A stretch of 64,000 bases of DNA from Thermoplasmatales archaeon (lineage in GTDB: Archaea > Thermoplasmatota > E2 > DHVEG-1): assembly GCA_041305025.1 (NCBI GenBank), contig JBFYMG010000025.1:5590-69589 (forward strand), in the 5' to 3' direction. The notes under the pieces are model-generated. The model was not told the origin of the DNA. It saw only the letters and a program-made list of their open reading frames with translations, and did no database searches. A program made the position numbers and the translations under genes. Shown here piece after piece: positions 35,014 to 58,380 of the stretch (position 1 is its first letter; every line of letters begins with the position of its first letter).

Positions 35014-35930
35014 AAGAATTTTTTGAAAAATTGTGCGAACTAAATAATATTGCAAGGCGAGATGTAGTCGAAAAAGATTATTATCTCCATCTGCTGCTCA
35101 ACGAAATAGCGAAAAACAAATACCTGCGATCAAACTTAATATTTAAGGGAGGCACATGTCTCATAAAAGGATATGCAAGTTATTTTCGTTTTTCCGAAGA
35201 TTTAGATTTTTCCTGGAGAAATCAAGAAAACTGGAGAGGCATGAAAACATCTAAAATAAGAAATCAATGCTCCGTTTTTATCGATAGACTTCTACCCATA
35301 TTTTCAAAGATATCTAATAACTTAGATCTAAATTTTGAAGGTGACAAAGAAAATCTTAAGGAGGTTCATATCAGCAGTGGTGGGAGAATGGTAGATTTCT
35401 ATATTCACTATAATTCAGAAATCCTTGGGGTGGTAAGCTCAATTAAAATTCAATTAAACTTTTTAGAAAAATATTTCTATGATTTCAAAACCGTGACATT
35501 GAAACCGTATGCGCCTTATAATGACGAAGAACTGCAATTTATTTTTAAAGATCAGATTGAGAGATACTCGATTCCAATAACTTTGGCTGCCTACGACCCA
35601 AAAGAGATATATATTGAAAAATACAGGGCACTGCTAACAAGAAAAACCTTCAAATTAAGAGATCTTATTGATTTATATTTTTTAGAAAAACAATTTCGAT
35701 ATACTGTAGATAGATTTGAAGATAAAATAATCCAAAAAACACGATTTGCTCTAGAAAACTATGATAGATATCGTAAAAATCTAGAAAAAACTCCGAAACC
35801 AGATTTTTCAAGTGAAGATGAATTAAAACTACTTTTGATTCAACCACCTAACAACTTCAAAGAAAATCTTAAGAGGATATATTTCAATGTAAATGAACTA
35901 AAAATGAAGATATTAGATGATCTTGGGTGA
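35010..35930 (+). CDS. AbiEii/AbiGii-family nucleotidyltransferase toxin (DUF1814)
   Basis: LIFKGGTCLIKGY...RFSEDLDFSW matches the AbiEii nucleotidyltransferase motif; 306 aa. Confidence 0.7.
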   Translation: MKEFFEKLCELNNIARRDVVEKDYYLHLLLNEIAKNKYLRSNLIFKGGTCLIKGYASYFRFSEDLDFSWRNQENWRGMKTSKIRNQCSVFIDRLLPIFSKISNNLDLNFEGDKENLKEVHISSGGRMVDFYIHYNSEILGVVSSIKIQLNFLEKYFYDFKTVTLKPYAPYNDEELQFIFKDQIERYSIPITLAAYDPKEIYIEKYRALLTRKTFKLRDLIDLYFLEKQFRYTVDRFEDKIIQKTRFALENYDRYRKNLEKTPKPDFSSEDELKLLLIQPPNNFKENLKRIYFNVNELKMKILDDLG

Positions 35931-35951: not shown

Positions 35952-37046
35952 ATGTTTGCGGAGGAGAAGATGAAATCAAAAATAATATTAGTAAGTTTGA
36001 TTGGCGTTCTTTTGTTAGGTATTTTGATAAGTTTTTCATCAATTGGAAGTTGTGAAGATGAAATTATTCTTTTTGTTGGCGGTACGGGTCCTGGGAACTA
36101 TAGCAGTATTCAAGATGCTGTGGATGCAGCTGGTGTCGGAGATACAATTATTGTGCATAATGGAATTTATTACGAGAATTTAGTTTTGAATAAATCAATT
36201 ACTATTGTTGGTGAAGATAGATTTAATACTATTATTGATGGCAATGGGGTTGGTGATGCCGTTTTTATATTGGCTGATAATGTTTGCATACGTAATTTTA
36301 CAATAAAAAACAAAGGAGCCAGTGGCACTGGTATAAACATTAGAGCTAATCAAAGTACCATAAGTGAGAATCTAATAATTGATAATAACTGGAGTGGTAT
36401 TGAGGCGGGATCGGCTTTTAGAAATTGTACCGTTAGTGAAAATACTATCATGAATAATGGATATGGAATATTTTTTGGTAAAAAAACGACGGGCATTAAT
36501 TTTAGCGTAAATACTATTAGTAACAACAGCTTGGATGGAATATATCTGGATCAGTCTAGCACTGGTATTGTTACTGATAACATTATTGACAAAAGTGGTG
36601 ATGACGGATTAAGTCTTACTTTTAGTAACGGAATTGTCGTTTATAAAAATTTTATTATCAACAGCGTAGACAATGGCATCTATTTGTATTCATCTACGGC
36701 AGTGATAAATGAAAACATAATTGCGGGAAGTAGTGAAGGAGGTATCTTTTTACGAAATTCAAATGAGAGCTGGATAGTTTGGAATAATATACTTGAGAAT
36801 GGGAAAGGAATAGAGGCGACATTTCTAAGTTGTAATAATGTGATAAGTAATAATAATATTACAAGCAACGGTATTGGAATATATTCGTCAGCCGATGCAG
36901 GTAGTAATGATTTTTTAGACAACAGTTTTTCAGATAACAAAGCCGATATTCAAAAGGATTCGTCTAAAACACCGGGTTTTGAAATATTACTTGTATTTAT
37001 TTCAATAGTTTTTGTTATGTTTTTAAAGATTTTTAAAAAGCAATGA
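35952..37046 (+). CDS. Right-handed parallel beta-helix (NosD/PbH1-repeat) cell-surface protein with PGF-CTERM anchor
   Basis: Signal peptide; repeated N/G-rich approximately 22-aa beta-helix turns (NGIYLxxS..., ITSNGIGIYSS). C-terminal SKTPGFEILLVFISIVFVMFLKIFKKQ is PGF motif + TM + basic tail. Confidence 0.65.
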   Translation: MFAEEKMKSKIILVSLIGVLLLGILISFSSIGSCEDEIILFVGGTGPGNYSSIQDAVDAAGVGDTIIVHNGIYYENLVLNKSITIVGEDRFNTIIDGNGVGDAVFILADNVCIRNFTIKNKGASGTGINIRANQSTISENLIIDNNWSGIEAGSAFRNCTVSENTIMNNGYGIFFGKKTTGINFSVNTISNNSLDGIYLDQSSTGIVTDNIIDKSGDDGLSLTFSNGIVVYKNFIINSVDNGIYLYSSTAVINENIIAGSSEGGIFLRNSNESWIVWNNILENGKGIEATFLSCNNVISNNNITSNGIGIYSSADAGSNDFLDNSFSDNKADIQKDSSKTPGFEILLVFISIVFVMFLKIFKKQ

Positions 37047-37171
37047 TAGTTTTTTACTTAGTTAAATCCAATTAGATACTTATTATTTGTTATGATGAAA
37101 AATTGAAAAGGACATCGTTATAAAAGGAATTATAAAAATGTTTATAAATTAAGAATAGTTGAATAGGAAAT

Positions 37172-38299
37172 ATGAGAAAATATGAAAGATGTGATAGATG
37201 TATTATGGATACTTCAGATCCAGATATAACTTTTAATGAAAATGGTTTTTGTAATCATTGCGAAGAATATTTTACAAAAGAAAAAAGATTTGTTTTGAAA
37301 GGCGAAGAAGGAAGAAAGAAATTAGAAAAGATTGTTGAGATGATTAAAGAAGAGGAGAAGGAAAAAAAATATGATTGTGTGCTTGGAGTAAGTGGAGGAA
37401 CAGATAGTAGCTATGTAGCGTACTTGGCAAAAAAATTTGGCTTAAGAGTTCTTTTATTAAATCTTAATAATGGCTATGATACTGAAATAGCTCAGAAAAA
37501 TATTAAAAATATAGTAAATAAAACAGGATTTGATATTTACAACTATAAAGTAGACTGGCAAGAATTTAGAGATCTTCAACTTTCATATTTGAATGCCTCA
37601 GTTGTGGATGTCGAGGTAGCTTCCGATCATGCCATTATGGCAGCAACATATAATATTGCAAGTGAATATAAACTAAGATATATCTTAAGTGGAACAAATA
37701 TCGTTACTGAAGGAATAATGCCAAAATCTTGGAATTACCAAAAAAATGATTTAAGAAATTTAAAAGATATACATAAAAAGTTCGGTAAATTTAAATTAAA
37801 AACTTATCCAACAATGGGTCTGCTCAAATGGTTGTATTACAGAGTCATTAAAAGAATACGATTAATAGAATTTTTAAATTATCTAGATTATAATAAAGAT
37901 GAAGTTAAAAAATTACTCAAGGATGAATTTGATTGGAAAGATTATACAGGAAAACATTATGAATCCAGATTTACTAAATTCTACCAAACTTATATTCTAC
38001 CAAAAAAATTTAACATAGATAAAAGAAAAGCCCATTTTTCTACTTTGATATGTTCTGGTCAGATGACAAAAGACGAAGCGCTCAAAGAGCTACTAAAGCC
38101 ATTGTATAATGAATTAGAACTTAAAAAAGAGAAAAAATTTATCCTAGATAGATTACAAATTTCGGATGAAGAATTTGAAGATTTGATGAAAAAACCTGTT
38201 AAAAAGCATGAAGAATATGCTACTGATAGATTGTTTCGTTCATTTTTATTAAATTTAAGCAACATCCAAAAAAAGTTATTGAAGCAGAAAGAGAATTAG
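37172..38299 (+). CDS. N-acetyl sugar amidotransferase (WbuX/PseA-like, PP-loop ATPase)
   Basis: N-terminal Cys cluster CDRCIMDTSDPDITFNENGFCNHC and PP-loop LGVSGGTDSSY; 375 aa. Confidence 0.75.
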   Translation: MRKYERCDRCIMDTSDPDITFNENGFCNHCEEYFTKEKRFVLKGEEGRKKLEKIVEMIKEEEKEKKYDCVLGVSGGTDSSYVAYLAKKFGLRVLLLNLNNGYDTEIAQKNIKNIVNKTGFDIYNYKVDWQEFRDLQLSYLNASVVDVEVASDHAIMAATYNIASEYKLRYILSGTNIVTEGIMPKSWNYQKNDLRNLKDIHKKFGKFKLKTYPTMGLLKWLYYRVIKRIRLIEFLNYLDYNKDEVKKLLKDEFDWKDYTGKHYESRFTKFYQTYILPKKFNIDKRKAHFSTLICSGQMTKDEALKELLKPLYNELELKKEKKFILDRLQISDEEFEDLMKKPVKKHEEYATDRLFRSFLLNLSNIQKKLLKQKEN

Positions 38300-38317
38300 G
38301 CAAAATATTGTAAAGCG

Positions 38318-39430
38318 GTGAGTGAGAAATATTTGATACGAAAAAAATCTATAAAAATTTGTTTTTTGGCAAATGGGGACGCTAGCGATGTTTTTACACA
38401 GATGTGGATTGATTATTTCGCAAAAAAATATAGTGTTATTTTAATAACGGACAATAAGCCCCACGGAATAGCTTGCAATGTAGAGGTATATTATATCAAA
38501 TGGGTTGGTAAAAATCAGTTTATTGGATTTGTTTTAAAAGTTAGAAAATTAATTAAAAAAATCAATCCTGATGTTATTTATGCTTTATCTCTTAATAAAT
38601 ATGGATTAATAGGTGCTTTATCTGGATTCCATCCATTTTTTGCAAGTCCATATGGAAGCGATATTGCTACATATCCGGACAGATCTGTAATTTCAAAATA
38701 TATAATTAAATACGTTTTAAAGAAAGCAGATATTATACAAGTTCAAGATCCGCTAAGTGCAGATAGAATAATAAGCTTAGGCACTTCTTCTAAAAAAATT
38801 CATACAATCCCGTGGGGTGCAAATATTAATTTGTTTAGACCAACAGATATGGAGAAAGAATATGACGTGATAAATATTCACGGAAATTCTTTCACTCAAC
38901 ATGATGTAGCGACTTTTATAAAATCATTACCAACAGTGATTAATAGATATCCTAATGTAAGATATATTCTACTTGGAAATAAGCAACCTGCATATAAATT
39001 GGCTAAAAAAATTGGAGTTTTAGATAATATAATATTTGGTGGTTTTATAAATCATAAAGATATTCCGTTTTATATTTGCCAATCAAAAATTTTTGTTGAC
39101 TGTTTTTATCCATCTCACAATCATGGAGGTCATACATATGGTGTTGCAGTGCATGAAGCCATGGCCTGTGGTATTCCCACAATCTTAGCAAACAGACCAA
39201 CAGTTAATCAACTCATTGGAAAAGACAAGTGGCACCATGGTAAAACATTTGTTGGTGGTAATTATTTAGATTTGGCTGAAAAAATTATTGAATTATTAGA
39301 TTCTAAAGAGGAACGTAATAGAATTTCGGTTCTTAATAGAAAAATTATTGAAAAAAAATTTGATTGGAATAAAAATATTATTAGTATTGAAAAGATGATA
39401 ATTAAAAATTATAGAGGAAAAAATCAATGA
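38318..39430 (+). CDS. Glycosyltransferase family 4 (GT-B)
   Basis: GT4 architecture with C-terminal EAMACGIPTI-type motif. Confidence 0.7.
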   Translation: MSEKYLIRKKSIKICFLANGDASDVFTQMWIDYFAKKYSVILITDNKPHGIACNVEVYYIKWVGKNQFIGFVLKVRKLIKKINPDVIYALSLNKYGLIGALSGFHPFFASPYGSDIATYPDRSVISKYIIKYVLKKADIIQVQDPLSADRIISLGTSSKKIHTIPWGANINLFRPTDMEKEYDVINIHGNSFTQHDVATFIKSLPTVINRYPNVRYILLGNKQPAYKLAKKIGVLDNIIFGGFINHKDIPFYICQSKIFVDCFYPSHNHGGHTYGVAVHEAMACGIPTILANRPTVNQLIGKDKWHHGKTFVGGNYLDLAEKIIELLDSKEERNRISVLNRKIIEKKFDWNKNIISIEKMIIKNYRGKNQ

Positions 39431-40377
39431 AAAATAAAAGGGAGATATCTAGAGAAATCCATATACAGTACGGAAGATTAAAAATTTTAAGAAATATTTT
39501 TTCCTTAAATTTTCCCATTTCAAATAAAAATAATAGCATTAGTTGCAAACCATTTTTTATTATTGGATCGGGAAGATCGGGAAGTACTCTATTAAGAGCC
39601 ATTTTAGTTAATAATTCTAAGATAGCAATACCACCAGAATCCTATGTATTACCAAATACTGTTCGAATTTTTTGGACGTATAATTTTTTGCCTTGGAAAG
39701 AACTAGTCAAACTAATAATTGGTGAATTTGAATCACATAATGATTTTTGTAGCTGGGATATCAATATGCAAGATGCATATAGCAGAATATTGAATCTCAA
39801 TAAAAAGAACCAAACTTTAGCAAATATTATCGATGAAATTTATTGTTATTATGCAGAATTAAAATTTCCAGATTTTGAGATTTGGGGAGACAAGACCCCA
39901 TACAATACTCTAAAATTAGATTGGATTGATCTCATATTCAGTAATGCAAAATATATTCACATCATAAGAGATGGGAGGGATGTAGTAAGTTCTTATCTAA
40001 AAATGGGTCGTTATAAAACAGTTGAAGAAGCGGCGCATCGTTGGAAAAAAAGTATAGAATTATGTGAAGAATTTAAAAAAAATAAATCAGAAAATGAATA
40101 TATTGAAATTAGATATGAAAAATTAGTTACTGAGCCTGATCACGAGATAAAATGTATTTGTAATTTTTTAAACATAGATTTTGACATATCAATGTTAGAT
40201 ATTAAAAAAATTGTATGTAAATTAGGAGATGTAGATGTTAAGCAACATGAAAACATTAAAAATCCAATAAATGCTAATTCTATAGGAAAATGGGAAAAAA
40301 ACTTGACGGATAAAGAAAAAATTAAAGTAAAAGAATTATTAAACGATACCTTGAGTGAATTAAATTATAGAATATAA
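39427..40377 (+). CDS. Sulfotransferase-family protein
   Basis: PAPS 5'-PSB-like FIIGSGRSGSTLL and 3'-PB-like RDGRDVVSS; 316 aa; 4-nt overlap with upstream GT4. Confidence 0.65.
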   Translation: MKNKREISREIHIQYGRLKILRNIFSLNFPISNKNNSISCKPFFIIGSGRSGSTLLRAILVNNSKIAIPPESYVLPNTVRIFWTYNFLPWKELVKLIIGEFESHNDFCSWDINMQDAYSRILNLNKKNQTLANIIDEIYCYYAELKFPDFEIWGDKTPYNTLKLDWIDLIFSNAKYIHIIRDGRDVVSSYLKMGRYKTVEEAAHRWKKSIELCEEFKKNKSENEYIEIRYEKLVTEPDHEIKCICNFLNIDFDISMLDIKKIVCKLGDVDVKQHENIKNPINANSIGKWEKNLTDKEKIKVKELLNDTLSELNYRI

Positions 40378-40432
40378 TTAAAATTGGAATAAGCTAAACA
40401 ATTATCCTTATGATAACGAATATGGTAATTAA

Positions 40433-41101
40433 ATGAATCTAATCGAATATTGGGATAAGAGAATATCTGAAAATAAACTATCTGGTACAGGAGATATTTC
40501 TCTTCATCCAAAGGTTAATGAACTTATAAAAAATTTAAAAATGAAAACTATTAGTTCCCTTATAGAATTCAAGGGAAAAAAAGTTTTAGATGCTGGATGC
40601 GGGGTAGGCATATATAGCAAATTCGCACAAGAGATGAATGCATCGCAGGTCATTGCAATAGATTTCGCAACTTCCGCAATAAAAATGACAAGATCAATAC
40701 AGATCGAAGGAATAAATGCAGATGTATCATACCTTCCTTTTAAAGACGGTTGTTTTGATGTAGTTATGTGTTTATCTGTGCTGTATCATATAGTTGATGA
40801 TGAACGATGGGAAATAGCAATAAATGAATTAATTAGAGTTTTAAAAACAGATGGGAAAATTCTTTTACAGATAGAGCATGATATCGATACACCAAATCTC
40901 GATCATTATCATAAAAGACCTTTTGAATCATATTTGCAAAAATTTAGAGAGTTAAAACTAAATGTTGTAAAAGTCGAAGATGTATATTCTCCACCCGATA
41001 ACAGTCTATTAAGATTATTACTAAGATTCATGCCAATTTTAAGATTGATTTTGATTAAAAAACGCAAACAAAATTTACTCATTGTTCTTAAACGAAAGTA
41101 A
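40433..41101 (+). CDS. Class I SAM-dependent methyltransferase
   Basis: Motif I VLDAGCGVGIYS; post-I acidic residue; 222 aa. Confidence 0.75.
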   Translation: MNLIEYWDKRISENKLSGTGDISLHPKVNELIKNLKMKTISSLIEFKGKKVLDAGCGVGIYSKFAQEMNASQVIAIDFATSAIKMTRSIQIEGINADVSYLPFKDGCFDVVMCLSVLYHIVDDERWEIAINELIRVLKTDGKILLQIEHDIDTPNLDHYHKRPFESYLQKFRELKLNVVKVEDVYSPPDNSLLRLLLRFMPILRLILIKKRKQNLLIVLKRK

Positions 41102-42535
41102 TGTACTTTTAAAGAAATTAAATTCTTTCATACCAACTGTTTTCGTAAAAAAGAGAATTGAAAAATATAAACCTGTTCCAATCATGATTACTGCCATCAA
41201 ACTCAATATTCTTTCTGGAGAGATCAGATAAATAAAAATAAACATTACAATTGATGCGAAAAGAGATTTTAGGATGGATTTGTAATCAATATTAAAAGTA
41301 AAAAAACGAGATGAATAATATATTGTTAAAATCATTGCTATTGCGTAAGCAATTAAAGTGGTAACAGCTGCACTTATCATACCAAATCTAGGAACAAATA
41401 AAATATTTAAAAAAAGATTAAAAATCGATGCAACAAGCCATATGACGGCAATCAGTTTAGTATTTTTTTTAAGAAAAAGTATCTGCGCATAAAATCTAGT
41501 TATGCCCTGCATAATGACTGCTGCGGCAACAATTGGAGGTATTAAATAAGCATTTTCTGCTATTTCTTTAGTAGTTAATATCTCCAGTAGTGGTCTAGAA
41601 ATTGCAATTAAACCAAAAACACTTGGAATAGTAATTATTAAAAAATATTTTAGACTATGACTTAAAACTCTTTTCACATCATCTATTTTTCCATCTTCGT
41701 AAGATTTAACCGTTATAGGTATTAAAGATACGCCTATCAAACTGACAAATATAAAAATAGTATTACCAATAGTGTATCCTGATGAGTAGTAACCCGTTGA
41801 AGCTACACCAATAAAAAGCGCTATTAAATATCTATCACTATATGAAACAATCCATGTTGTCAAAGAAGAAGGAAGTAGCGGTATGCTGAAAGATAAATAT
41901 TCCTTTGATGAAGAAAAATTTGGCATCGCTATACCGATATCACGGACTACCAGGTAAAACAATATAATAAAAATAAAAAAATTGGCCAAAAAAATTGATA
42001 GAACAGCACCGAAGAGGCCAAATTTTAAATATAACAAGAATACGCATACAAAACCTATTTTTAGGTAAGCCAATAGTATAGAAAAGAAGGAAAATTTATT
42101 GGCCTGCTGTATTGCAAGAAAATAGAACTTAAATAAAGTATTTAAACAGATGAATGGAAGAACCCAAGAAGCAACGATTAGTATCTGGATATGGTTTGGG
42201 TATAAAAGGTTACCAATTATCATAATAATTGATACCATGAAAGTTGAAGATATAGTAATTAAAATTGCTGAAGAATAAATTCCTTCTTGTAGAGTTATCT
42301 TATTTTTTCCATTTGAAAGGAATCTAAGTACGGCCTGTGGTATTTGCAAAAGTGAAAATTCGGGTAGCAGTTCCAGCAAAACTATAATTAGAGACCATAC
42401 ACCATAGTCATATATATCAAGGGATTTTGTTAATAAAGGGAGGAGTATTAGCCCCGATGGAGTGATTAATATTTGCGTTATAAACATTAATCCAAAATTT
42501 TTCCCTACACTCTGATAAAGTTTGTAATTGTTCAT
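41075..42535 (-). CDS. Polysaccharide/oligosaccharide flippase (Wzx/MOP family)
   Basis: 486 aa, about 12-14 predicted TM segments, typical Wzx length and topology, inside a glycosyltransferase cluster. Confidence 0.65.
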   Translation of the reverse strand: MNNYKLYQSVGKNFGLMFITQILITPSGLILLPLLTKSLDIYDYGVWSLIIVLLELLPEFSLLQIPQAVLRFLSNGKNKITLQEGIYSSAILITISSTFMVSIIMIIGNLLYPNHIQILIVASWVLPFICLNTLFKFYFLAIQQANKFSFFSILLAYLKIGFVCVFLLYLKFGLFGAVLSIFLANFFIFIILFYLVVRDIGIAMPNFSSSKEYLSFSIPLLPSSLTTWIVSYSDRYLIALFIGVASTGYYSSGYTIGNTIFIFVSLIGVSLIPITVKSYEDGKIDDVKRVLSHSLKYFLIITIPSVFGLIAISRPLLEILTTKEIAENAYLIPPIVAAAVIMQGITRFYAQILFLKKNTKLIAVIWLVASIFNLFLNILFVPRFGMISAAVTTLIAYAIAMILTIYYSSRFFTFNIDYKSILKSLFASIVMFIFIYLISPERILSLMAVIMIGTGLYFSILFFTKTVGMKEFNFFKSTLLSFKNNE

Positions 42536-42577
42536 TATTTCTGTCCTTTAAAATTTTAATTCATAATTGAATTTTTT

Positions 42578-43765
42578 TCAGTTTAACTGCTTTTTTATTA
42601 TTAAATTTTTACACACTTCTTCAATTTTTTTTGAAACATCTATCCATCGGTTGTAGTTGTTTACATAACGTCTTCCATTTTTTCCCATTTCTAACCTCAA
42701 TTTAGGGGTTTTTAATAGTTTTATAATTGCATTTGATAATTGTAATGAATTATTTGATTCGGTCATTATACCAGCATTTACGTTTTCTATGAATTCCAAA
42801 CCCGGTATTTTTGAAGCAACTATTGGTTTTTCGCATGCCGCATATTCATAAATTTTTAGAGGGGAGAGACCGATTTTTACATTTCTTGTTTCCGTAAATG
42901 GTGCTACACATACGTCCCCCGCATTGATGTAAGTTAGCGTCTTTTCGTGAGGAATTAATCCGGTAAAAATAAAACTGTCAAAAACTTTGTTTTCTATTGT
43001 AAGATTTACAAGATGCTGTTTTATTACACCATCACCAATTATTAAAAATTTTGTATTGGGAATTTCCTTCAAGATGGTTGGAGCTGCTTGAATGAGATAT
43101 TCTATCCCTTGCCATGGCACAAGATTACCTACAAAACAAACGTGATAATCAGTTTCATTCAATTTTAATTCTCTCAAGCATTCCTTCTTATTTTTGGGTT
43201 TAAATAAATCCGGATCAACTCCATTTGGTATTATAGAAATTTTAGATGAATCAATATGGAATTCATTCACTATGTAGTCTTTGATTTCTTTTGTAACTGC
43301 AATTATTGTATTACATAGTCGATAGGATTTTTTTTCAAGTATTAGTAAAAATTTGTACATCAAACTATTTTGTGTTATCAATTTTTTAGAAAGAGCTTCA
43401 TCACTAATAATTCCATGAGATAACATAATGATTGGTATCTTTTTCTTTGAAAAATATTTAAACAACGGTACATAAAAAGTATCAGTTATTATAACATCAA
43501 AATTTTTCGTTTCTTTATTAATTTTTTTTAAAATCTTAATCAATCTAAATAATACTATTGGCGATTTAAAATTCTCTCCATAAATTCTTTCGTTAACAAC
43601 GACATTCTTTTTGATATATGATTTTAATTCCTCATCCAATATAGGATTTGGAGAAATGATGGTAATATTCCAATTTTTTGGAAAGTGTTTAACTCTATTT
43701 TTAATTGAAATAACTCGGACGTTTTTTTTAGTTAAATCGTCAAATGTTATCCAGCATAAATTCAT
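42578..43765 (-). CDS. Glycosyltransferase family 4
   Basis: GT-B fold signatures (EKKSYRLCNTIIAVT, C-terminal E-x7-E region); 395 aa. Confidence 0.72.
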   Translation of the reverse strand: MNLCWITFDDLTKKNVRVISIKNRVKHFPKNWNITIISPNPILDEELKSYIKKNVVVNERIYGENFKSPIVLFRLIKILKKINKETKNFDVIITDTFYVPLFKYFSKKKIPIIMLSHGIISDEALSKKLITQNSLMYKFLLILEKKSYRLCNTIIAVTKEIKDYIVNEFHIDSSKISIIPNGVDPDLFKPKNKKECLRELKLNETDYHVCFVGNLVPWQGIEYLIQAAPTILKEIPNTKFLIIGDGVIKQHLVNLTIENKVFDSFIFTGLIPHEKTLTYINAGDVCVAPFTETRNVKIGLSPLKIYEYAACEKPIVASKIPGLEFIENVNAGIMTESNNSLQLSNAIIKLLKTPKLRLEMGKNGRRYVNNYNRWIDVSKKIEEVCKNLIIKKQLN

Positions 43766-44955
43766 TTTCTATTCTCTCTTAAAATCTTCCGATATATCTT
43801 GAGTGTATTTTTTGCAATGTTTTCCCACGTATAATTCTCTTCCGCGCTTTTTCTATTTTCATTTCCCATCGTTATTCTTTCTTCAGGATGTAGTATGAGA
43901 TAACTTATCTTTTCGGCTAGTTGTTCTACATCTCGTGGTTTAACAAGAAAACCATTTATGCCATCTTTCACTGCATCTGAAATTCCACCAACGTCTGAAG
44001 CGATAATAGGTTTACCAGCTGCCATTGCTTCAGGGATGACCGTAGGAAATCCCTCCGATAAAGAAGTGATTACAAAAATATCTGCTTGTTCCAAATATTT
44101 TGGGATTTCTTCATTTGCAATGGCCCCGACAAATGTAATATTTTTATCTATAGCCAATATACGAGCAAAATTTTCTAGGCTGTTTTTTAGAGGCCCATCG
44201 CCGACTAACATCAGTTGAGATTCTGGATAGATATCTATAATTCTCTTCGTTGCTTTGAGTAAATATTCTAAACCTTTTACTTCAACCATTCTTCCAATCC
44301 AGATGAGAGTCGAACCATAACTCTTCATCTTAGAGGGCGATTTCGGTTTAATCATTGACAAATATACTCCATTGGGTATAACAGTGATAAAATCCTCTTT
44401 TAAACCTAAATTAATCAATCGTTTTTTATTTTCGTTAGAAACAGTTATTATGCTATCTGAATGCGATATAATTTCAATCAACATTTTTTTAAAAAATCCT
44501 TGTTTAGGGATTGTATAGATATCGCTTCCGTGAGCTGTTATAATTAATTTTTTTCCAGTTAATTTTTTAATAAATAATCCAGCGTATCCAGATGGCAAAA
44601 ATTCGGCATGAATAATATCGCATTTTTTGGCAATGCGTAATCCTTTAAAGAAAAAACATACCATAAAGAATATTAGCTGAAATTTGGCTAAAAGAATGCG
44701 AGAAAGGTTGCGAGGTATTCCTCCACCATAAGCAACTTTTTGTCCTTTTTTTGTAAACCAATATTGAAATCTGTAGATTTCAACACCATCGATAAATTCT
44801 TGATCTTTTGTATTCACATCATGAGGAGCAATAACGCTAATACGTACATCGTTTTTTACAAGTTCTTTTGCCAGATTATGAACAAAAATTCCAGCGTAAT
44901 CGCCAGCATATCTTGGATAAGATGTAGTAAGAATGCATATTTTCATATTATTCAT
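43762..44955 (-). CDS. Glycosyltransferase family 4
   Basis: LSEGFPTVIPEAMAAGKPIIASDVGG motif; 397 aa; 4-nt overlaps on both sides. Confidence 0.78.
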   Translation of the reverse strand: MNNMKICILTTSYPRYAGDYAGIFVHNLAKELVKNDVRISVIAPHDVNTKDQEFIDGVEIYRFQYWFTKKGQKVAYGGGIPRNLSRILLAKFQLIFFMVCFFFKGLRIAKKCDIIHAEFLPSGYAGLFIKKLTGKKLIITAHGSDIYTIPKQGFFKKMLIEIISHSDSIITVSNENKKRLINLGLKEDFITVIPNGVYLSMIKPKSPSKMKSYGSTLIWIGRMVEVKGLEYLLKATKRIIDIYPESQLMLVGDGPLKNSLENFARILAIDKNITFVGAIANEEIPKYLEQADIFVITSLSEGFPTVIPEAMAAGKPIIASDVGGISDAVKDGINGFLVKPRDVEQLAEKISYLILHPEERITMGNENRKSAEENYTWENIAKNTLKIYRKILRENRK

Positions 44956-45899
44956 CTGGATAATTCTTTATTTGATTCCATATCAAACATCATGGCAAAA
45001 ATTATTGATTGTAAACCCATAATTAAAAATAACGCAGTTAAAACTACAGTTCCTGTAGAATATCCGCCAGTCAAAATTCTGAAATATAGAACATCGATTC
45101 CGAGTATAAGTCCAAAAGGAAATAATATAAGCCCAACAAGATAAAATAGAAACAATGGATGGAAATTTACTCCACCATATTCCCTCCATATTCTTTTGAA
45201 AAAACCGCTAACTAATAACCCTGTCAATCTAGCAGAATATCTCCCCATCTTTATTTTCGATTTTTCATTGCCATATCTTGGAGACATCTCTACATCTGCG
45301 ATTCGAAATTTACCGACATTTAGCTTTATCAACAAATCATTAGGATAACCATATCCATCATATATATCATCCACATCGATAGTTTCTAATGCTTTTCTTG
45401 AAATAGCAGTATATCCATTTTGTGGATCAATAACATTCCAATATCCTGATGCTATCTTTGTAAGAAATGTTAACATTCCGTTTCCGAATGCTCTAAATTT
45501 TGGCATCTTCATTCTTTCTTTGTGTGTTAGTCTATTTCCTTTTGCATAATCGATTTTCCCTTCGACAATTGGATCAATTAATCTGTGCAGTTCGTTGGGA
45601 TCCATTTGTGCATCACCGGCCATAACTGCAGTAACGTCAATATTCAACTCGAGAGATTTTTTGTATCCCGTTTTGATTGCCGCGCCAACGCCTTTATTTT
45701 TTTCATGCCTAACCAAAATTAATTTATTGGAAAATTTTTCCTGTAATGAATCTACCATCTTTACTGTATTGTCTTTGCTGTTGTCGTCAATAACTATGAG
45801 TTTATCGACAAAATCAGGAATCGTTGTGATTGTTTGCAAGATCAGTTGTTCTTCATTATATGCTGGAACAACAACCGCTATTGTTTTTTCTTTGTACAT
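44952..45899 (-). CDS. Glycosyltransferase family 2 (dolichyl-phosphate sugar synthase-like) with C-terminal TM helices
   Basis: VVVPAYNEE, DDNSKDNT, DAQ motifs (GT-A DxD region) plus two C-terminal TM segments. Confidence 0.8.
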   Translation of the reverse strand: MYKEKTIAVVVPAYNEEQLILQTITTIPDFVDKLIVIDDNSKDNTVKMVDSLQEKFSNKLILVRHEKNKGVGAAIKTGYKKSLELNIDVTAVMAGDAQMDPNELHRLIDPIVEGKIDYAKGNRLTHKERMKMPKFRAFGNGMLTFLTKIASGYWNVIDPQNGYTAISRKALETIDVDDIYDGYGYPNDLLIKLNVGKFRIADVEMSPRYGNEKSKIKMGRYSARLTGLLVSGFFKRIWREYGGVNFHPLFLFYLVGLILFPFGLILGIDVLYFRILTGGYSTGTVVLTALFLIMGLQSIIFAMMFDMESNKELSR

Positions 45900-45994
45900 C
45901 TATAGTCCTCCTCGCCAGCGTTACAATTTACATTATATCATTATTATGGATATTTTTAACTATTAAAGATATACAAAATGAATTACATAAACCT

Positions 45995-48900
45995 TTATTT
46001 CACTTTATAAATATGCCAATCAACCTCAACCTGTTTCTTTATAGGATTGGCAGAGATATGCATATAGATATCGGCTACAGATGGATAATATTGTGTCAGA
46101 TCATGAGTGGAAAGAATGTAATCCGCATTAACATTTCCGGAAAGTATTAGGTTGCTTAGGTTATTTGAATTCTTAAATTCTACATGTGCATCTGGCAACC
46201 AAAAATACATATCCGAATGCATGATTTTCCAATAGCTTAAATCCATCCCGCCTCCAGAAAAGGCACCGAAACCATCTTCAAAAATTATAGATGAATCAGG
46301 GTCATTTTGCATAAACCAACGAGCGGGTTTATTCATTCCATCATTCATAACAAATGCATTCTCACTTATTTGCTCATCGATAATTGGAATGCAAAGCAAT
46401 AATGATAGGAGTAGAGCAACTATTAAAAAAATATTAGCAGATTTGGATGACTTTTTAATAAATGAAAAATTTTTTTTCAAAAACCATTTTAAAGTTATGC
46501 AAATGGTAAATAATATCAAAATGACTCCGAACAAGATACGAAATAAAGTAAAACAATCAACATTAAATATGTAATTCCCACGTAAACCAGTTATCCATAA
46601 GAGATCTATATTGTTAACGATGTGATAATTTTCTATTGGGAAAAAAAGAATGAAAAAAAAGCCAAGTAAAATTAAAATATAACTAATATGGAAATTAACA
46701 TTGCGATTTTTATTTTTTATTCTTTGAAATAAGTTAATGCCGATAACGCCTAACATAAAAATGATTGGCAGGCCCGGAGAAGCATATCTTGTATAAATGC
46801 TATAGTGGGTTGAAAAAATATGAGTGCTTGTAATTATTATAAGAAAGAAAATAGAAGACAGCCCATACAATGTAAAAACAGCTAGAGATTCTTTTTTTTC
46901 ATTTTGGAATTTTTTCCAATTTATGACTAAAAAGACAGAAAACGCTGCGAAAACAATGTAACTCATAACAACAAAATAGTTAATTTCATTTAATACTATA
47001 TGAATAAATCTAGTAAAATTTGATAAATTCGAAAAAACTAAAGAGAGATTGGCAAGATAATAAGAATCAGAATAGCCCATTGTCAATGATTTGCTCTTAT
47101 ACATCATGTATCCAATAACAGGTATGAATGGCAGAAAAATTAACCCGTATTTGATTGCAAAAATTTTCCTATTTTTTATAATTTTGTAGAGAAAAACAAA
47201 AAATAAAGCAGCCAGCATGGCTACACCTATAGATCTAACCATAATAAGAAATCCTACAGAAAAACCGGATAAAAGAGAATAAAATACGAACTTTTTATCA
47301 AAATTATCACACGTAAATGTTTTTAATATCAAAAGGCAGGAAATTAGAAATATGGGATAAAAAGCATTTTCACTCATTGTTACATAGGTGTAAGCAGTTA
47401 TTATTGGTAAAATTGCGATTATTATGGAAGTGACAAAAGATAATTTTTTGCTGACAAAATTTTTCATTATAAAAAAAACGGGAAAAATCACCAGCGAAGA
47501 AAGTACGCAGTTGATAAATAACATAGCACGGTATACTACATCCATGTTGTTTCCCAGAAGATATGTAGGAGCTAAAAAATATGAGTATCCTGCGGGAGGA
47601 TATGCAGTTGAAAAGGGTACATTCCCTATAATCGTAAAGTTACCTTGAAATATGTATTTGGCCAAGACACCATATATAAGCTCGTCACCATATATCCGTG
47701 GAGCGACAAAGAAATAACTTATTAAAAACTTGACGGCAATAAGAACAAAGAAACTTAAAATTATAAGACCGAACCATCCACCCAATTTCATGAAAAAGTG
47801 AAGACATTTGGAACGGTTTAGTATTTGTCTTATCGTTTTGATATTATAAACGATAATTATACTTATTCCTAATAGTATTATGAATATCAAAGCACCGATT
47901 CCTTGAGGCATCTTATTAGATGTAATACCTGCCTGATCTGACGTAACAATTATTTTTCTTAAATCTATGCTACTTGATCCATTATTATCAAAGATTTCAA
48001 GAAATGCATTGTATGAGCCTTCTTTGTTGTAAATATATGTTGTTATTCCAGTGGAATTTGAATTCCAATCGTAGATTCCATCGCCGTTAAAATCCCATCG
48101 AAATATAGTGATCTTTCCATCAGGATCATACCCCGTTCCATTAAAAGATACAATTTTTCCTTCATGAACATTCGCGTCACCGCCAGCATATGCCATTGGT
48201 GACAAATTAATTTCATCGCTAATGTCTTTGTTTGTTTTAATCATAAAAACGTTGTAGCCGTTGGGCCACTGAGTATAACCCACTAGCGTGAATCCACCGC
48301 CATCTGTTCGTATCAAAGAAAGTGCTCGTTCGTCACCATCACCTGAATAATTTTTATTCCATTGCATATAACCATTGGAATCTGTTTTCACAAGAAAAAA
48401 ATCATATGAAAGCAATACTTCAGAGTGCCCTGCGATTGCAAAACCATTGTCCGGGGTTTGAATTAAAGAATATGCACCATCATCCTGCTTTCCACCATAG
48501 GTCCTATTCCACTCCATAGTACCATTTTGATCTGTTTTTACTAACCAGAAGTCACTACTGCCTGAACCATATGAAAGTGTATAACCGGCGAGCGCAAAAC
48601 CGTAATCTTGGGTTTGAATTAAAGAATATGCAAAATCATCTTCTGGCCCACCATATGTTTTACTCCAACATAGGTCGCCGTTAGAATAAATTTTTATTAG
48701 AATAAAATTGTTTTTTTCTTCACCAAATGAATTAGAAATGCCTGCAATGGCGTATCCGCCATCCGGGGTTTTAGTCACTGATGTAGCTTGATCATCTTTA
48801 ATTCCACCATATGTTTTATACCATTCAACACCGCCAGTGGAGTTAGTTTTAATCAAAAGAAAATCATAGTCATTTCCTCCAACAAGTGGTGAGTTTGAAG

Positions 48901-49366
48901 ATCCAACGATCAAATATCCATCATCATCTGTTTGAAGTAAATCATATGCAGAATCATCTCTGCTACCTCCATAAAGTTTATTCCATTCCATAGTACCATT
49001 CTTATCTGTTTTTACCAACCAGAAATCGTATTCGCCTGAACCAAAAGAATCGGTTATTCCTACAAACGCGTATCCTCCATCAATAGTTTGAATCACTTGT
49101 GTCGCAACGTCATAACCTTTCCCACCATATGTTTTATTCCATTTTTCAATCGGATAACTATGCCCAATTGTAGTTGAAAAAAAGGACAGAGTAATAACTA
49201 ACAGAACAATAAAGATAGCCTTTGCATATTTTTTAATTATATCCTCACCGTCTTGCAAACCTAGTATTTTTATATAATATTTATTGTCGAAGATATTCTT
49301 ACATAATAAGGTATAGTAATACCTTTTAAAAACATTGATATAGATGTGAAAAGAAATTTTTTGCAT
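45995..49366 (-). CDS. Large membrane glycosyltransferase (GT-C/ArnT-PMT-like) fused to an N-terminal repeat domain and PKD domain
   Basis: N-terminal about 6 x 48-aa YGG..DD.AYSLIQT.DGG repeats (beta-propeller-like), PKD domain (FNGTGYDPDGKITIFRWDFNGDG), then about 13 TM helices with YPPAGYSYFL-type GT-C motif and a soluble C-terminal domain. Confidence 0.5.
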   Translation of the reverse strand: MQKISFHIYINVFKRYYYTLLCKNIFDNKYYIKILGLQDGEDIIKKYAKAIFIVLLVITLSFFSTTIGHSYPIEKWNKTYGGKGYDVATQVIQTIDGGYAFVGITDSFGSGEYDFWLVKTDKNGTMEWNKLYGGSRDDSAYDLLQTDDDGYLIVGSSNSPLVGGNDYDFLLIKTNSTGGVEWYKTYGGIKDDQATSVTKTPDGGYAIAGISNSFGEEKNNFILIKIYSNGDLCWSKTYGGPEDDFAYSLIQTQDYGFALAGYTLSYGSGSSDFWLVKTDQNGTMEWNRTYGGKQDDGAYSLIQTPDNGFAIAGHSEVLLSYDFFLVKTDSNGYMQWNKNYSGDGDERALSLIRTDGGGFTLVGYTQWPNGYNVFMIKTNKDISDEINLSPMAYAGGDANVHEGKIVSFNGTGYDPDGKITIFRWDFNGDGIYDWNSNSTGITTYIYNKEGSYNAFLEIFDNNGSSSIDLRKIIVTSDQAGITSNKMPQGIGALIFIILLGISIIIVYNIKTIRQILNRSKCLHFFMKLGGWFGLIILSFFVLIAVKFLISYFFVAPRIYGDELIYGVLAKYIFQGNFTIIGNVPFSTAYPPAGYSYFLAPTYLLGNNMDVVYRAMLFINCVLSSLVIFPVFFIMKNFVSKKLSFVTSIIIAILPIITAYTYVTMSENAFYPIFLISCLLILKTFTCDNFDKKFVFYSLLSGFSVGFLIMVRSIGVAMLAALFFVFLYKIIKNRKIFAIKYGLIFLPFIPVIGYMMYKSKSLTMGYSDSYYLANLSLVFSNLSNFTRFIHIVLNEINYFVVMSYIVFAAFSVFLVINWKKFQNEKKESLAVFTLYGLSSIFFLIIITSTHIFSTHYSIYTRYASPGLPIIFMLGVIGINLFQRIKNKNRNVNFHISYILILLGFFFILFFPIENYHIVNNIDLLWITGLRGNYIFNVDCFTLFRILFGVILILFTICITLKWFLKKNFSFIKKSSKSANIFLIVALLLSLLLCIPIIDEQISENAFVMNDGMNKPARWFMQNDPDSSIIFEDGFGAFSGGGMDLSYWKIMHSDMYFWLPDAHVEFKNSNNLSNLILSGNVNADYILSTHDLTQYYPSVADIYMHISANPIKKQVEVDWHIYKVK
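48256..49156 (-). repeat. Tandem array of about 144-nt degenerate repeats encoding the YGGxxDDxAY...DGGY modules
   Basis: At least six consecutive protein-level repeats; coordinates approximate. Confidence 0.5.
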
Positions 49367-49434
49367 ATTTAAATCAAAGAAATAAAAAGATATAAGGCAT
49401 CAATACGCAATATCCTCAATTTGGTGTATAATAA

Positions 49435-50562
49435 ATGATAAAAATTAGAGTTGTTGTTTTAACTGTCACCATTCTACTTTGTTTTTTTATTTTTTCCTTC
49501 ACGGTTGAGAATATCAGAGCAACAGATGAAAACACTATTTTTATTGATGATAACTATGATAACTCTACATATGGTTTCGGAGTAAATCATTTCAATCAAA
49601 TTCAATCTGCCATAAATGCTGCATCTGTTGGTAATACACTATACGTTTATTCTGGAGTATACTATGAAAATTTGTTAATAAATAAATCAATCTCAATTGT
49701 CGGAGAGGATAAAACAATTGTTGACGGTGGTGGTAACGGAGATGTAATTACAATAAAAGCTGATAAAGTATTCATAAACAATTTCTCCATTCAGAATAGC
49801 GGACATAGCGGACAAGATTCGGGTTTAAAAATTTTATCCGGTCAAAACATTATACAAAAAAATAACTTCGACGATAATCAAATAGGCATCTTAATACGAA
49901 ATAGCAAATCAAATTTTGTTTCGGGGAATAATATTACAAACAATACATATGGCATAGGGGTTGAATTTTGTAAAAATAAAAACGACATATACAAAAATTA
50001 TGTTTTCAATAACAAAATTACAGGGATATATCTATCTTATAGTGACAACAATTTAGTAAATCAAAATTATATAGAGAACAATAGCTATGGGATAGCATTG
50101 TCTTTTTGTAACAATACCCGCATTTTAGAAAATAACAACAAAAAAAATAACAACTACGGATTAAGTTTATATTCGTGCAGTAATAATCGTCTCGTTGGAA
50201 ATAGAATCACTGAGAGTAATCATGGAATTGTATTTGAAGAAAGCAATTTTAACAATACAATAGACAATAACAATATCAAAAATTATTCGTTTGGAATTAG
50301 AATAGGGAATAAAAACAAAAATACCACAATAACAAATAACATAATATCAAACGGAGATAATGGAATATACATCTCAGCAAAATCAAAAGAAAACCACATT
50401 TTTAATAATATATTCTCGAACAATGAGATTAAAATTCAAGAAGAGACAACATCTATCGAGAAAGAGATAGATTTTTTATACGTCTTGGTGCCGAGTTTTA
50501 TAATAATGTTAATAATAATGCTGTACGGTCTCTATAAGATACTGCAAAAAAAGATGTCGTAA
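49435..50562 (+). CDS. Right-handed parallel beta-helix repeat surface protein with C-terminal TM anchor (no PGF)
   Basis: Signal peptide; about 12 Asn-rich beta-helix turns (NNxI.GI....S); C-terminal hydrophobic helix LVPSFIIMLIIMLYGLY. Confidence 0.6.
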   Translation: MIKIRVVVLTVTILLCFFIFSFTVENIRATDENTIFIDDNYDNSTYGFGVNHFNQIQSAINAASVGNTLYVYSGVYYENLLINKSISIVGEDKTIVDGGGNGDVITIKADKVFINNFSIQNSGHSGQDSGLKILSGQNIIQKNNFDDNQIGILIRNSKSNFVSGNNITNNTYGIGVEFCKNKNDIYKNYVFNNKITGIYLSYSDNNLVNQNYIENNSYGIALSFCNNTRILENNNKKNNNYGLSLYSCSNNRLVGNRITESNHGIVFEESNFNNTIDNNNIKNYSFGIRIGNKNKNTTITNNIISNGDNGIYISAKSKENHIFNNIFSNNEIKIQEETTSIEKEIDFLYVLVPSFIIMLIIMLYGLYKILQKKMS

Positions 50563-50625: not shown

Positions 50626-51015
50626 TTATGTAAATTCCCATGTGCCCAATAATGTGTTTGTTGGTACGTATCTCAAGGTGACTGTATCTGGAGAACTTGT
50701 AAATTCGATGTAATCACCTGCCGTAACAGTACCCGTTGGAAAAGCAGAAATTGTTTCTCCTTCAACGAGTTCGATATCACTCCAATCTAAACTTGTCGGA
50801 TCAGCTGAAGATACAAGTAGCCTGTTGGAAATATCATTTTTTGAAAACTGTACGTTTGGTGTTACAGTAGGACTTGTTCCAATCATTCCACTAACGTATA
50901 CATACACTGTTGCTGCTATCGCTACTGTTATTGCAACCATTAAAATAACACCAATAACAGCCGAAACTGCTTCCTCACCTTTTATAAATTTCCTATTTGC
51001 TTTCATCTTTCCCAT
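50626..51015 (-). CDS. Archaeal type IV pilin (class III signal peptide, Pilin_N/DUF361-like)
   Basis: MGKMKANRKFIKGEEAVSAVIGVILMVAITVAIAATVYVYV: basic leader, KG cleavage context and conserved hydrophobic helix; 129 aa. Confidence 0.72.
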   Translation of the reverse strand: MGKMKANRKFIKGEEAVSAVIGVILMVAITVAIAATVYVYVSGMIGTSPTVTPNVQFSKNDISNRLLVSSADPTSLDWSDIELVEGETISAFPTGTVTAGDYIEFTSSPDTVTLRYVPTNTLLGTWEFT

Positions 51016-51290
51016 TCTCTCCTAGCTATATTTCAAGCTATTTCATTTTGACAGTAGATGGTTCACATGGTATATATACTTTTTGACTTTTGCTTTAATC
51101 TACATCTGGGAGTGACAAGAATTTTAAGATAATAAACTTACAAATAATTAAAACTTATAATTTAGAACATAGCAACGAAATGTTTATTATAAGTAAGTAA
51201 GTTTACAGTATTGTAAAAATAATAAAATAATGGGATGCCGCAAGAATAATTGTTGTAGTGCATCTACTAAATCTTTGGAGATTTGGAAGA

Positions 51291-52553: not shown

Positions 52554-52557
52554 GAAT

Positions 52558-58376: not shown

Positions 58377-58380
58377 TTCC

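Follow-up and report, generated by a model that had tools for sequence, protein, structure and literature searches.

Surface-glycan loci of variable content and low GC (guanine plus cytosine) are well known from bacteria and haloarchaea. The bacterial O-antigen and capsule loci occupy a fixed site with conserved flanks, vary in content, have a low GC content and show mosaic similarity between genomes; they encode Wzx flippases, GT4 and GT2 glycosyltransferases and sugar-tailoring enzymes, and they contain no integrase. Variable glycosylation clusters of Haloferax represent the archaeal counterpart of such loci (PMC5867893). All of these properties recur in a segment at 34.1-50.6 kb of a 64-kb stretch of Thermoplasmatales archaeon DNA (GCA_041305025.1, contig JBFYMG010000025.1, positions 5,590 to 69,589 of the forward strand; hereafter the window, whose numbering is used throughout). 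This segment is probably a chromosomal surface-glycosylation locus of fixed position and variable content, situated between the genes for the prepilin peptidase and the major pilin; the probability of this reading is put at roughly 0.6. Given the bacterial and haloarchaeal precedents, the basic finding is unsurprising. The locus differs from O-antigen and capsule loci in that its flanks are prepilin peptidase and pilin genes, its frame includes two beta-helix proteins and an 1100-amino acid GT-C glycosyltransferase fusion, no Wzy was found among its annotated open reading frames, it has no chain-length regulator, and its carrier is presumably dolichol phosphate.

The left flank of the slot is the conserved gene for an archaeal prepilin peptidase (33303..34034, minus strand; Pfam Peptidase_A24 and Arc_PepC_II), orthologues of which, 55-76% identical, adjoin the locus or a pilin gene in L015, L017, L019, L022, L081, L083, L085, L101 and L104 (L numbers denote the related loci). 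The conserved right flank is the gene for the major type IV pilin (50626..51015, minus strand; Pfam Pilin_N), which has a class III signal peptide and no N-X-S/T sequon. Inside these flanks stands a frame. Its peptidase-side member encodes beta-helix surface protein A (35952..37046, plus strand; NosD/Beta_helix repeats). On the pilin side, the gene for beta-helix surface protein B (49435..50562, plus strand; NosD repeats) diverges across a 68-bp spacer from that of a giant GT-C enzyme with PKD and PMT_2 domains (45995..49366, minus strand, 1123 amino acids; Pfam PKD_4 and PMT_2), which is adjoined by a membrane-type GT2 gene (44952..45899, minus strand; Pfam PF00535, 85 bits). Orthologues of the GT-C gene lie in the same peptidase-pilin slot in seven other Thermoplasmatota contigs and one gene list, and in most of these loci GT2 is present too, along with at least one of the two beta-helix genes. 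The slot lies between peptidase and pilin genes in the window, L081, L083, L085, L088 and L104, and the partial views offered by L090, L101 and the P0001 contig agree.

The two beta-helix proteins of the window are 35% identical to each other. Protein A begins with a signal or transmembrane segment and ends in a PGF motif, a transmembrane segment and a basic tail; protein B has a plain C-terminal transmembrane anchor. Each has 10 N-X-S/T sequons, a density of 2.7 per 100 amino acids versus 0.2-0.6 in the four cytoplasmic proteins checked. The combination of PGF, transmembrane segment and basic tail occurs in the products of 35952-37046 and 61416-63239 and not in that of 49435-50562, so that of the two frame proteins only A shows this type of ending; no match to the PGF-CTERM hidden Markov model was obtained. 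Protein A has positional orthologues in L081 (45% identical) and L085 (37%); those of protein B (L081, L083, L088, L090, L091 and L104) are 36-45% identical and always divergent from the GT-C gene. The original prediction had described an island bracketed by these two proteins. Both are indeed there, but since they have positional orthologues at the same site, the "brackets" are resident frame genes and not the borders of an insert.

The genes between the frame genes vary from genome to genome. Starting from the pilin gene, L081/L082 have a beta-helix gene, GT-C, GT2, an epimerase, a methyltransferase, an unknown gene, Wzx, a UDP-sugar dehydrogenase, a second beta-helix gene, an MNT/HEPN pair and the peptidase. 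The locus in L083/L084 is reduced to beta-helix B and GT-C, with two small genes on the pilin side and the peptidase and DnaJ genes beyond. In L085/L086, the pilin gene is followed by GT-C, GT2, DUF354, a methyltransferase, Wzx, an epimerase, a beta-helix-like gene, the peptidase and DnaJ, and in L088 by a beta-helix-like gene, GT-C, GT2, DUF354, GT4, Wzx, a methyltransferase, a pyruvyl transferase, an FrhB-like gene, an unknown gene and the peptidase. L090 has pilin, beta-helix and GT-C genes and then an AAA ATPase, a second PMT_2 protein, DUF354, Wzx, a TagF-like glycerophosphotransferase, GT4 and GT2. Beyond the pilin, beta-helix and GT-C genes of L104 come GT2 (76% identical), GT4, an acetyltransferase, an epimerase, an aminotransferase, HisF, HisH, WbuX (43%), Wzx and the peptidase. 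L101 shows GT-C, GT2 (71%), three GT4 genes and the peptidase (76%), and the P0001 contig shows two pilin genes, GT-C, GT2 and GT4.

In the window, the cargo comprises WbuX, three GT4 glycosyltransferases, a sulfotransferase, a methyltransferase and Wzx. Open reading frames of at least 100 amino acids between 33.3 and 56 kb were scanned with Pfam and NCBIfam, and PADLOC was used as well; all of the gene assignments first made for the beta-helix proteins, the cargo, the GT2 and the GT-C were confirmed in this way. Next to beta-helix A lies the gene for a WbuX-family N-acetyl sugar amidotransferase (37172..38299, plus strand; TIGR03573). It is followed by the variable middle genes for a GT4 (38318..39430, plus strand; Pfam Glyco_trans_4_2 and Glycos_transf_1), which is at most 31% identical to any GT4 of the related loci, a sulfotransferase (39427..40377, plus strand; Pfam Sulfotransfer_3, 109.6 bits) and a class I S-adenosylmethionine-dependent methyltransferase (40433..41101, plus strand; Pfam Methyltransf_11/25). 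The sulfotransferase gene has the lowest GC content, 0.267, and its product is 27% identical to one in L105 and has no counterpart across the same-slot loci. Methyltransferases are present in most same-slot loci, yet they are barely alike (24% identity in L081). On the minus strand, a Wzx/AglR-type flippase (41075..42535; Pfam Polysacc_synt PF01943, 60.4 bits) with about a dozen hydrophobic segments is 25-33% identical to the Wzx proteins of L088 and L104 and does not match that of L102. Two further Pfam-assigned GT4 genes, also on the minus strand, complete the cargo: one (42578..43765) has a counterpart in L102 with 65% identity, and the other (43762..44955), which adjoins GT2, is 56% identical in L101 and 49% in L102. 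Packing by 4-nt overlaps had been overestimated, as the 11 junctions in 35952-50562 include three of these and one 27-nt convergent overlap, the rest being gaps of 18-125 nt.

At the peptidase-side edge, two adjacent genes with a 4-nt overlap form an AbiE pair by predicted function. The AbiEi antitoxin-like gene (34372..35013, plus strand; PADLOC AbiEi, E 1.3e-46; GC 0.298) has no Pfam or NCBIfam match and no homologue in any related locus, and the AbiEii nucleotidyltransferase toxin gene (35010..35930, plus strand) matches Pfam PF08843 with 82.6 bits and PADLOC AbiEii with E 5e-53. A toxin-antitoxin module is located at this edge in two genomes, AbiEi/AbiEii in the window and MNT/HEPN in L081 (21377-22341), and the window AbiEii and the L081 MNT are both polymerase-beta-type nucleotidyltransferases. 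Such modules may stabilise the locus or may just be defence genes lodged in a variable region.

The locus is missing in some close relatives. A scan of species-representative genomes, a set without the source genome, for the PilB ATPase returned metagenome-assembled genomes (MAGs) of Thermoplasmatota only, including relatives of Thermoplasmatales archaeon SM1-50, with best identities of 81-82%. Within 10 kb, none of the 80 PilB loci has homologues of the glycan genes. The segment is absent at this site in L015, L022, L019, L017, L025 and L009 (PilB 70-82% identical), and in these six genomes the peptidase gene lies approximately 0.2-3.2 kb from pilin or PilB genes. In L015, for example, the order DnaJ, peptidase, pilin, Lys-rich gene, PilB is the order of the window minus 16.5 kb. 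Absence in six relatives, taken alone, would resemble insertion. On a neighbour-joining tree of PilB, locus-bearing and locus-free genomes interleave: L104, whose PilB is 83% identical, has the locus, and L015, at 81%, is without it. Among the segment-free genomes, L015, L025 and L009 have kept one or more pilins, and no recognisable pilin lies between the peptidase gene and the PilB operon in L019 (8072-10000), L017 (8667-10000) and L022 (6972-8591). An archaeal-type PilB relative, 46% identical, is also found in L079, a MAG labelled "Proteobacteria bacterium", probably because of a binning error.

The composition of the segment is atypical. The window as a whole has a GC content of 35.3%; 35952-50562 has 0.302 and the flanks (1-34100 and 52554-64000) 0.373. 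The mean over 1-kb windows is 0.303 at 34-52 kb and 0.373 elsewhere (Mann-Whitney p 7e-9), and the low-GC stretch, placed originally at 35952-50562, is thus low there as claimed but really begins at ~34.1 kb, before the AbiEi/AbiEii pair (34372-35930), and extends to ~52.5 kb. For the 13 genes of 34372-50562, mean GC is 0.301, and the values at first, second and third codon positions (GC1, GC2 and GC3) are 0.370, 0.291 and 0.241; the corresponding means for 41 comparison genes are 0.376, 0.478, 0.343 and 0.307 (p 4e-4 to 3e-7 for the four differences, with p ~3e-6 for GC3). Synonymous codon usage also differs between locus and flanks (chi2 160, df 41, p 5e-16), whereas a control split of the flank genes into odd and even gives p 0.58. 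Mere amino-acid bias was considered as the source of the low GC and rejected, since GC3 and synonymous codon usage are shifted too. The strongest deviation in GC3 and codon usage in the window is that of the variable middle (37172-43765; GC3 0.212 against 0.311 for the flanks in the same block-wise comparison, chi2 169, p 2e-17). The frame end (43762-49366; GC3 0.267, chi2 64, p 0.011) deviates no further than 14 kb of core genes taken as a control (chi2 78). The originally predicted AT-richness is therefore real, and the sliding-window GC and codon-usage checks proposed for it both show a deviation; with a significantly lower GC content and six relatives without the segment, this stretch is neither compositionally ordinary nor conserved at this site in all relatives.

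Atypical composition and patchy distribution are common to mobile islands and to non-mobile hypervariable loci. The values of 0.30 versus 0.37, the deviant codon usage, the six relatives without the segment and the AbiE toxin-antitoxin or abortive-infection module at one edge could all be accommodated by a classical genomic island, in which ~16.5 kb of foreign, lower-GC DNA was recently inserted in one piece between the peptidase and pilin genes. This is improbable. The GT-C orthologues, mostly together with GT2 and beta-helix orthologues, occupy the same slot in seven contigs that span both PilB subclades, the composition of the frame end falls within the core-gene control, and the GC dip relative to the flanks is a recurrent feature of the relatives. 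In L081, L085 and L088, GC and GC3 of the locus are below those of its own flanking genes (in L085, for example, GC is 0.22-0.27 versus 0.33-0.38 and GC3 0.12-0.15 versus 0.20-0.25), most locus genes of L104 are below its core genes in GC, and the minimal version in L083 has no clear dip. Because the dip recurs, it is not a marker of recent foreign arrival in this genome. The picture of an island dropped into core DNA is not supported, the slot having orthologous contents in seven contigs and one gene list.

Marks of mobility are likewise missing. Among the scanned open reading frames in 33.3-56 kb, neither Pfam nor NCBIfam detects an integrase, recombinase or transposase, which agrees with the earlier observation that none marks the borders. 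The longest word common to both junctions is an A/T-rich 11-mer, with no long border repeats or attachment (att) sites, and no tRNA gene is next to the segment, the nearest being those for Val at 30623, 3.3 kb away beyond four genes, and Asp at 61252-61325, 10.7 kb past the island (the original prediction had put the latter about 11 kb further on). A blastn search of 34035-42000 for a phage or plasmid origin gave no match in either collection. With no integrase, att-like repeat, adjacent tRNA or phage and plasmid similarity, homologous recombination is the most economical mechanism for the variation of a fixed-position locus. Recombination in the frame and the flanks probably replaces the middle, as in the bacterial O-antigen and capsule loci, with no mobile element involved, and the whole locus is probably also lost or gained at times.

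Lateral replacement of modules is indicated by the uneven similarity of neighboring genes. The nearest cassette, L102, has the same gene order, with 83% identity for GT2, 49% for GT4 (43762), 65% for GT4 (42578) and 70% for WbuX, but it has no detectable match to Wzx, the methyltransferase or GT4-38318 and no sulfotransferase. L104 is close to the window in its core genes and GT2 (73-83% identity), but its WbuX and GT-C reach just 43% and 44%. These values bear on the possibility that the locus is ancient and purely vertical, ancestral in the clade, lost several times and evolving fast, with no lateral exchange and with its low GC stemming from a bias in mutation or from relaxed selection on codons among membrane and glycan genes that are weakly expressed. 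Such a history would suit the frame genes at the same site across the PilB tree, the GC dip in most relatives and the lowering of GC1 and GC2 along with GC3, which fits Asn/Lys/Ile-rich proteins. It is nevertheless unlikely, as it sits poorly with the very unequal similarities to L102, including its three unmatched genes, with a WbuX 70% identical in L102 and 43% in L104 despite 76% for GT2 and 83% for PilB in the latter, with a GT2 only 34% identical in L081, and with cargo families that differ outright (sulfotransferase, pyruvyl transferase, TagF-like protein, HisH/HisF). Thus, of the proposal that the segment is a horizontally exchanged glycosylation cassette, several parts survive: it is a surface-glycan cassette, its content differs between relatives (seven contigs and a gene list with it, six genomes without), and exchange of modules is likely on the mosaic similarity, although low GC does not count as a mark of foreign origin.

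Several observations weigh against a fixed-position locus that is reshuffled by recombination. GT-C homologues with 37-45% identity in L087, L094 and L105 lie in glycan clusters away from pilin genes. The contigs compared come from MAGs and metagenomes, and absence is established at this site only. A genome of the same species did not turn up, PilB being at most 83% identical over 405 or more residues, and recent or strain-level exchange is conjectural. The relatives are 60-85% identical in core proteins, so that the pattern could in part stem from an ancient presence followed by repeated losses and rapid divergence, and the cargo was compared by pairwise identities. Additionally, the island has no initiating glycosyltransferase, no oligosaccharyltransferase (AglB) and no nucleotide-sugar genes, the window has no genes for synthesis of 3'-phosphoadenosine-5'-phosphosulfate (PAPS), and the pathway is read from family membership only. 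The island is for this reason unable to make its glycan alone, and the structure of the glycan is not deducible.

The working of the locus can be proposed in outline. The GT4 enzymes would build a dolichol-linked oligosaccharide in the cytoplasm, its sugars being tailored by acetamidino formation (WbuX), methylation and sulfation, and Wzx would flip it across the membrane. An oligosaccharyltransferase (AglB) encoded elsewhere would then attach it to sequon-rich surface proteins such as beta-helix A and B. In parallel, GT2 would load dolichol phosphate with a single sugar, which the ArnT-like GT-C would transfer outside the cell, either to a glycan or to a protein that its propeller/PKD ectodomain recognises as acceptor. 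Annotated open reading frames include Wzx and no Wzy or O-antigen ligase-type protein, and the product is accordingly more probably an oligosaccharide than a polymer.

WbuX-family chemistry leads to acetamidino groups and not to uronamides, and comparable enzymes are known as PseA and LfnA; the AglXYZ genes of Methanococcus maripaludis are acetamidino genes. The acetamidino sugar of the M. maripaludis glycan has been reviewed (PMC2952790). Like these systems, the window has a WbuX above the family cut-off (TIGR03573, 285.7 bits versus 203.2) with an intact PP-loop, SGGTDS at residue 74, and this enzyme is predicted to convert acetamido to acetamidino groups. On this family membership, uronamide chemistry was rejected, which leaves acetamidino as the favored half of the original "uronamide or acetamidino" alternative for an amidated glycan. 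The best relatives of the window WbuX are in L102 (70%) and L103 (66%), the latter inside a NeuB/nonulosonic-acid cluster, with just 43% in the closer genome L104. The locus differs from the WbuX and AglXYZ systems in that HisH/HisF-like ammonia suppliers are not found in 34-51 kb; they are present beside WbuX in L104.

The giant enzyme of the frame is, judging from its predicted structure, an ArnT/PMT_2-type GT-C. The AlphaFold2 model (predicted local distance difference test score 78, predicted TM-score 0.68) consists of an N-terminal transmembrane anchor, a beta-propeller (residues 74-378), a PKD domain (390-475), a multi-transmembrane ArnT/PMT_2-like domain (488-1010) and a C-terminal alpha/beta domain. 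Among solved folds, Foldseek ranks ArnT (5ezm; E 9e-6, TMt 0.54) first for the core, ahead of STT3 and ALG12, and the propeller resembles that of CylK (E 3e-15). The first outer loop contains the motif Y-G-D561-E562, in which D561 is invariant and E562 at least 90% conserved among 19 homologues. About 20 full-length homologues show 35-53% identity at 93-96% coverage. The Pfam PMT_2 score is marginal (28.4 versus a cut-off of 26.1), and a profile of the membrane domain finds no relative by sequence among PDB chains (best E 0.076).

Two other identities for this enzyme were rejected. An AglB/STT3 oligosaccharyltransferase is contradicted by the lack of a WWD motif (WWDxG) and of an STT3 Pfam match, and by ArnT as the best fold; a canonical GT39 protein O-mannosyltransferase (PMT) by the lack of PF02366 and MIR matches and of any PMT1/2 structure among the Foldseek top 50. 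One GT-C homologue carries the source annotation "glycosyltransferase family 39". The first 44 residues of the window reading frame (49235-49366) have very low model confidence and are not conserved; the true start is probably downstream, and the divergent spacer to beta-helix B would then be wider. L087 has three tandem giant GT-C paralogues (1127, 1151 and 1136 amino acids; 1-13411) in a cluster with a sulfotransferase, an adenosine 5'-phosphosulfate (APS) kinase, an ATP sulfurylase and a DHH phosphatase, a complete PAPS supply, unlike the window.

The GT2 partner has a hydrophobic C-terminal region (approximately residues 242-308) after its GT2 domain. Its best NCBIfam match is AglJ (TIGR04182, 92 bits versus a cut-off of 325), and matches to PpgS, PgfS and ArnC are also below cut-off. 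The hydrophobic region and these matches suggest a polyprenyl- or dolichyl-phosphate sugar synthase of the GtrB/ArnC/AglD/AglJ type. It is located next to GT-C in at least nine contexts and adjoins it with 57-83% identity in L085, L088, L097, L098, L101, L102 and L104.

Such pairs are known from several systems. In Haloferax volcanii AglD/AglR/AglS, mannose is placed on dolichol phosphate by the GT2 and flipped with the help of a Wzx-like protein, and a GT-C-type enzyme adds it to the protein-bound N-glycan outside the cell (PMC3871713). The window has the same trio of membrane GT2, Wzx/Polysacc_synt protein and PMT_2-type GT-C in an archaeal surface-glycan cluster, but the likeness is one of protein type: the GT2 is below the AglJ cut-off, and the GT-C has a beta-propeller and PKD ectodomain. 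In the three-component GtrA/B/C, ArnC/ArnT and pentofuranose systems (PMC11127046), a GT2 polyprenyl-phosphate sugar synthase similarly adjoins a GT-C; ArnT is the best structural match of the window GT-C, and ArnC is among the matches of its GT2. Here, however, the host is archaeal, no small GtrA-type flippase was found, and the GT-C, at twice the size, carries an ectodomain at its N-terminus. A PMT_2 domain paired with a polyprenyl-phosphate sugar GT2 is also the arrangement of the actinobacterial GT39 PMT and Ppm1 (PMC11727336), and streptococcal PgfS works with a GT-C on Ser/Thr-rich regions (PMC11092751), PgfS being among the window GT2 matches. Eukaryotic TMEM260 is a further protein O-mannosyltransferase (PMC10214176). 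Unlike O-mannosyltransferases, the window GT-C has no MIR domain, and its closest fold is ArnT. A GT-C domain fused to a protein-binding (TPR) domain occurs in TMEM260 and the TMTC enzymes. With respect to position, there is a parallel in Pseudomonas aeruginosa, where the pilin glycosyltransferases TfpW (a GT-C-type enzyme) and TfpO/PilO are encoded beside the major pilin gene, pilA, in a lineage-variable locus (bioRxiv 10.1101/2020.04.19.049825). TfpW adds D-arabinofuranose oligomers. The likeness of the window locus to it is one of position, and the pilin is a putative acceptor here.

The pilins beside the locus are unusual in their sequons. In 8 of 11 contexts, the major pilin gene is no more than one gene away from GT-C, and the GT-C-adjacent pilins have no N-X-S/T sequon (7 of 7), while all pilins of GT-C-free loci (11 of 11) have 1-5 each (Fisher p 8e-5, computed for 6 versus 11 pilins). 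Composition alone would give each pilin a chance of 0.2-0.64 of having no sequon, and for six pilins these chances multiply to 0.003. The two groups of pilins are intermingled on the PilB tree, but with a small sample of related members the contrast can only suggest a hypothesis. By way of background, archaeal pili and threads have been seen to carry O-glycans, and a Thermoplasmatales pilus that was investigated is N-glycosylated at sequons (PMC12448462); the pathway of archaeal O-glycosylation has been called elusive (PMC8241124). A Ser/Thr/Pro stretch after the pilin helix was tried as a discriminator between loci with and without GT-C and was rejected, since both groups have it.

One tentative explanation for these pilins is that the locus is dedicated to O-glycosylation of the pilin or a pilus-associated protein, with GT2 making the donor, GT-C modifying Ser/Thr residues of the pilin and the rest of the locus building or tailoring the donor, while the pilin has dispensed with its N-glycosylation sites. 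The proximity of GT-C to the pilin gene, the sequon contrast, the stretch rich in Ser/Thr/Pro that follows the N-terminal helix, the ArnT/PMT_2 fold joined to an ectodomain that might bind a protein acceptor, and the O-glycans seen on archaeal pili that still lack a known pathway (PMC12448462, PMC8241124) are all in keeping with it. It is made doubtful by the small and phylogenetically non-independent sample, by the same stretch in pilins of GT-C-free loci, by the three GT-C homologues unlinked to a pilin (L087, L094, L105), by the fact that the most constant partner of GT-C is beta-helix B and not the pilin, and by an acceptor that is only inferred; an AglS-like role, in which GT-C would complete an N-glycan with a last sugar, is just as good a fit. 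That GT2 and a pilin-adjacent GT-C together form an archaeal protein O-glycosylation system for the pilin and possibly for beta-helix B, and that the pilins so served have lost their sequons, is thus a conjecture with the odds against it.

Outside the slot, the pilus assembly operon (51258..55957, plus strand; Pfam T2SSE and T2SSF) is syntenic across all close relatives. It contains the gene for a Lys/Glu-rich protein of 431 amino acids (51258-52553, plus strand; GC 0.329) with no family match, directly upstream of the PilB-type ATPase gene (52558-54198, plus strand; T2SSE), and two TadC-type membrane protein genes (54195-55061 and 55058-55957, plus strand; T2SSF). A counterpart of the Lys/Glu-rich protein with similar size, composition and place is found in all close relatives. 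After the TadC genes (56028-60348), a 782-amino acid protein with Pilin_N and Laminin_G_3 domains and 10 sequons and a 665-amino acid choice-of-anchor L protein with 6 sequons are encoded; these are probably minor or tip pilins or adhesins, and in having sequons they differ from the major pilin. A third NosD/beta-helix protein (61416-63239, 607 amino acids), with the PGF, transmembrane and basic C-terminus mentioned above and a weak "Heimdall-CTERM" match, is kept downstream of the pilus operon in L015, L019, L025 and L014 and therefore belongs to the core and not to the variable locus.

The core genes named originally as flanks, ftsZ (11993-13147), rtcB (22286-23752) and aspS (25434-26741), were all recovered. 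Otherwise the flanks consist of housekeeping DNA of an archaeal chromosome, including genes for ribosomal protein L10, TiaS, NadC, PyrB, HMG-CoA reductase, PolB, DnaJ and HSP20. A tRNA-Leu(gag) at 28668-28752 is an ARAGORN call, and the Rfam scan at gathering thresholds reported just three other tRNAs. Two open reading frames, 26867-28027 (386 amino acids) and 60373-61065 (230 amino acids), have no Pfam match; the latter is 41-62% identical in relatives, with its orientation inverted in most.

The searchable literature yielded no account of this archaeal family of GT-C fusions, nor of a glycan slot framed by pilus genes. Relative to this literature and the databases, what is new is the fixed address of the locus inside the type IV pilus locus of uncultured Thermoplasmatota, its frame around an uncharacterised 1100-amino acid GT-C fusion and a putative dolichol-phosphate sugar synthase, and the association with sequon-free pilins. 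If that association is causal, it points to enzymes of archaeal O-glycosylation and would offer a first genetic handle on this process. Should it not be causal, the locus is still a good illustration of how a low-GC "island" free of integrases can be a resident locus shuffled by recombination. Its versions in related genomes additionally provide a catalogue of interchangeable tailoring modules for archaeal surface glycans, comprising sulfation, pyruvylation, glycerophosphate and acetamidino modification.

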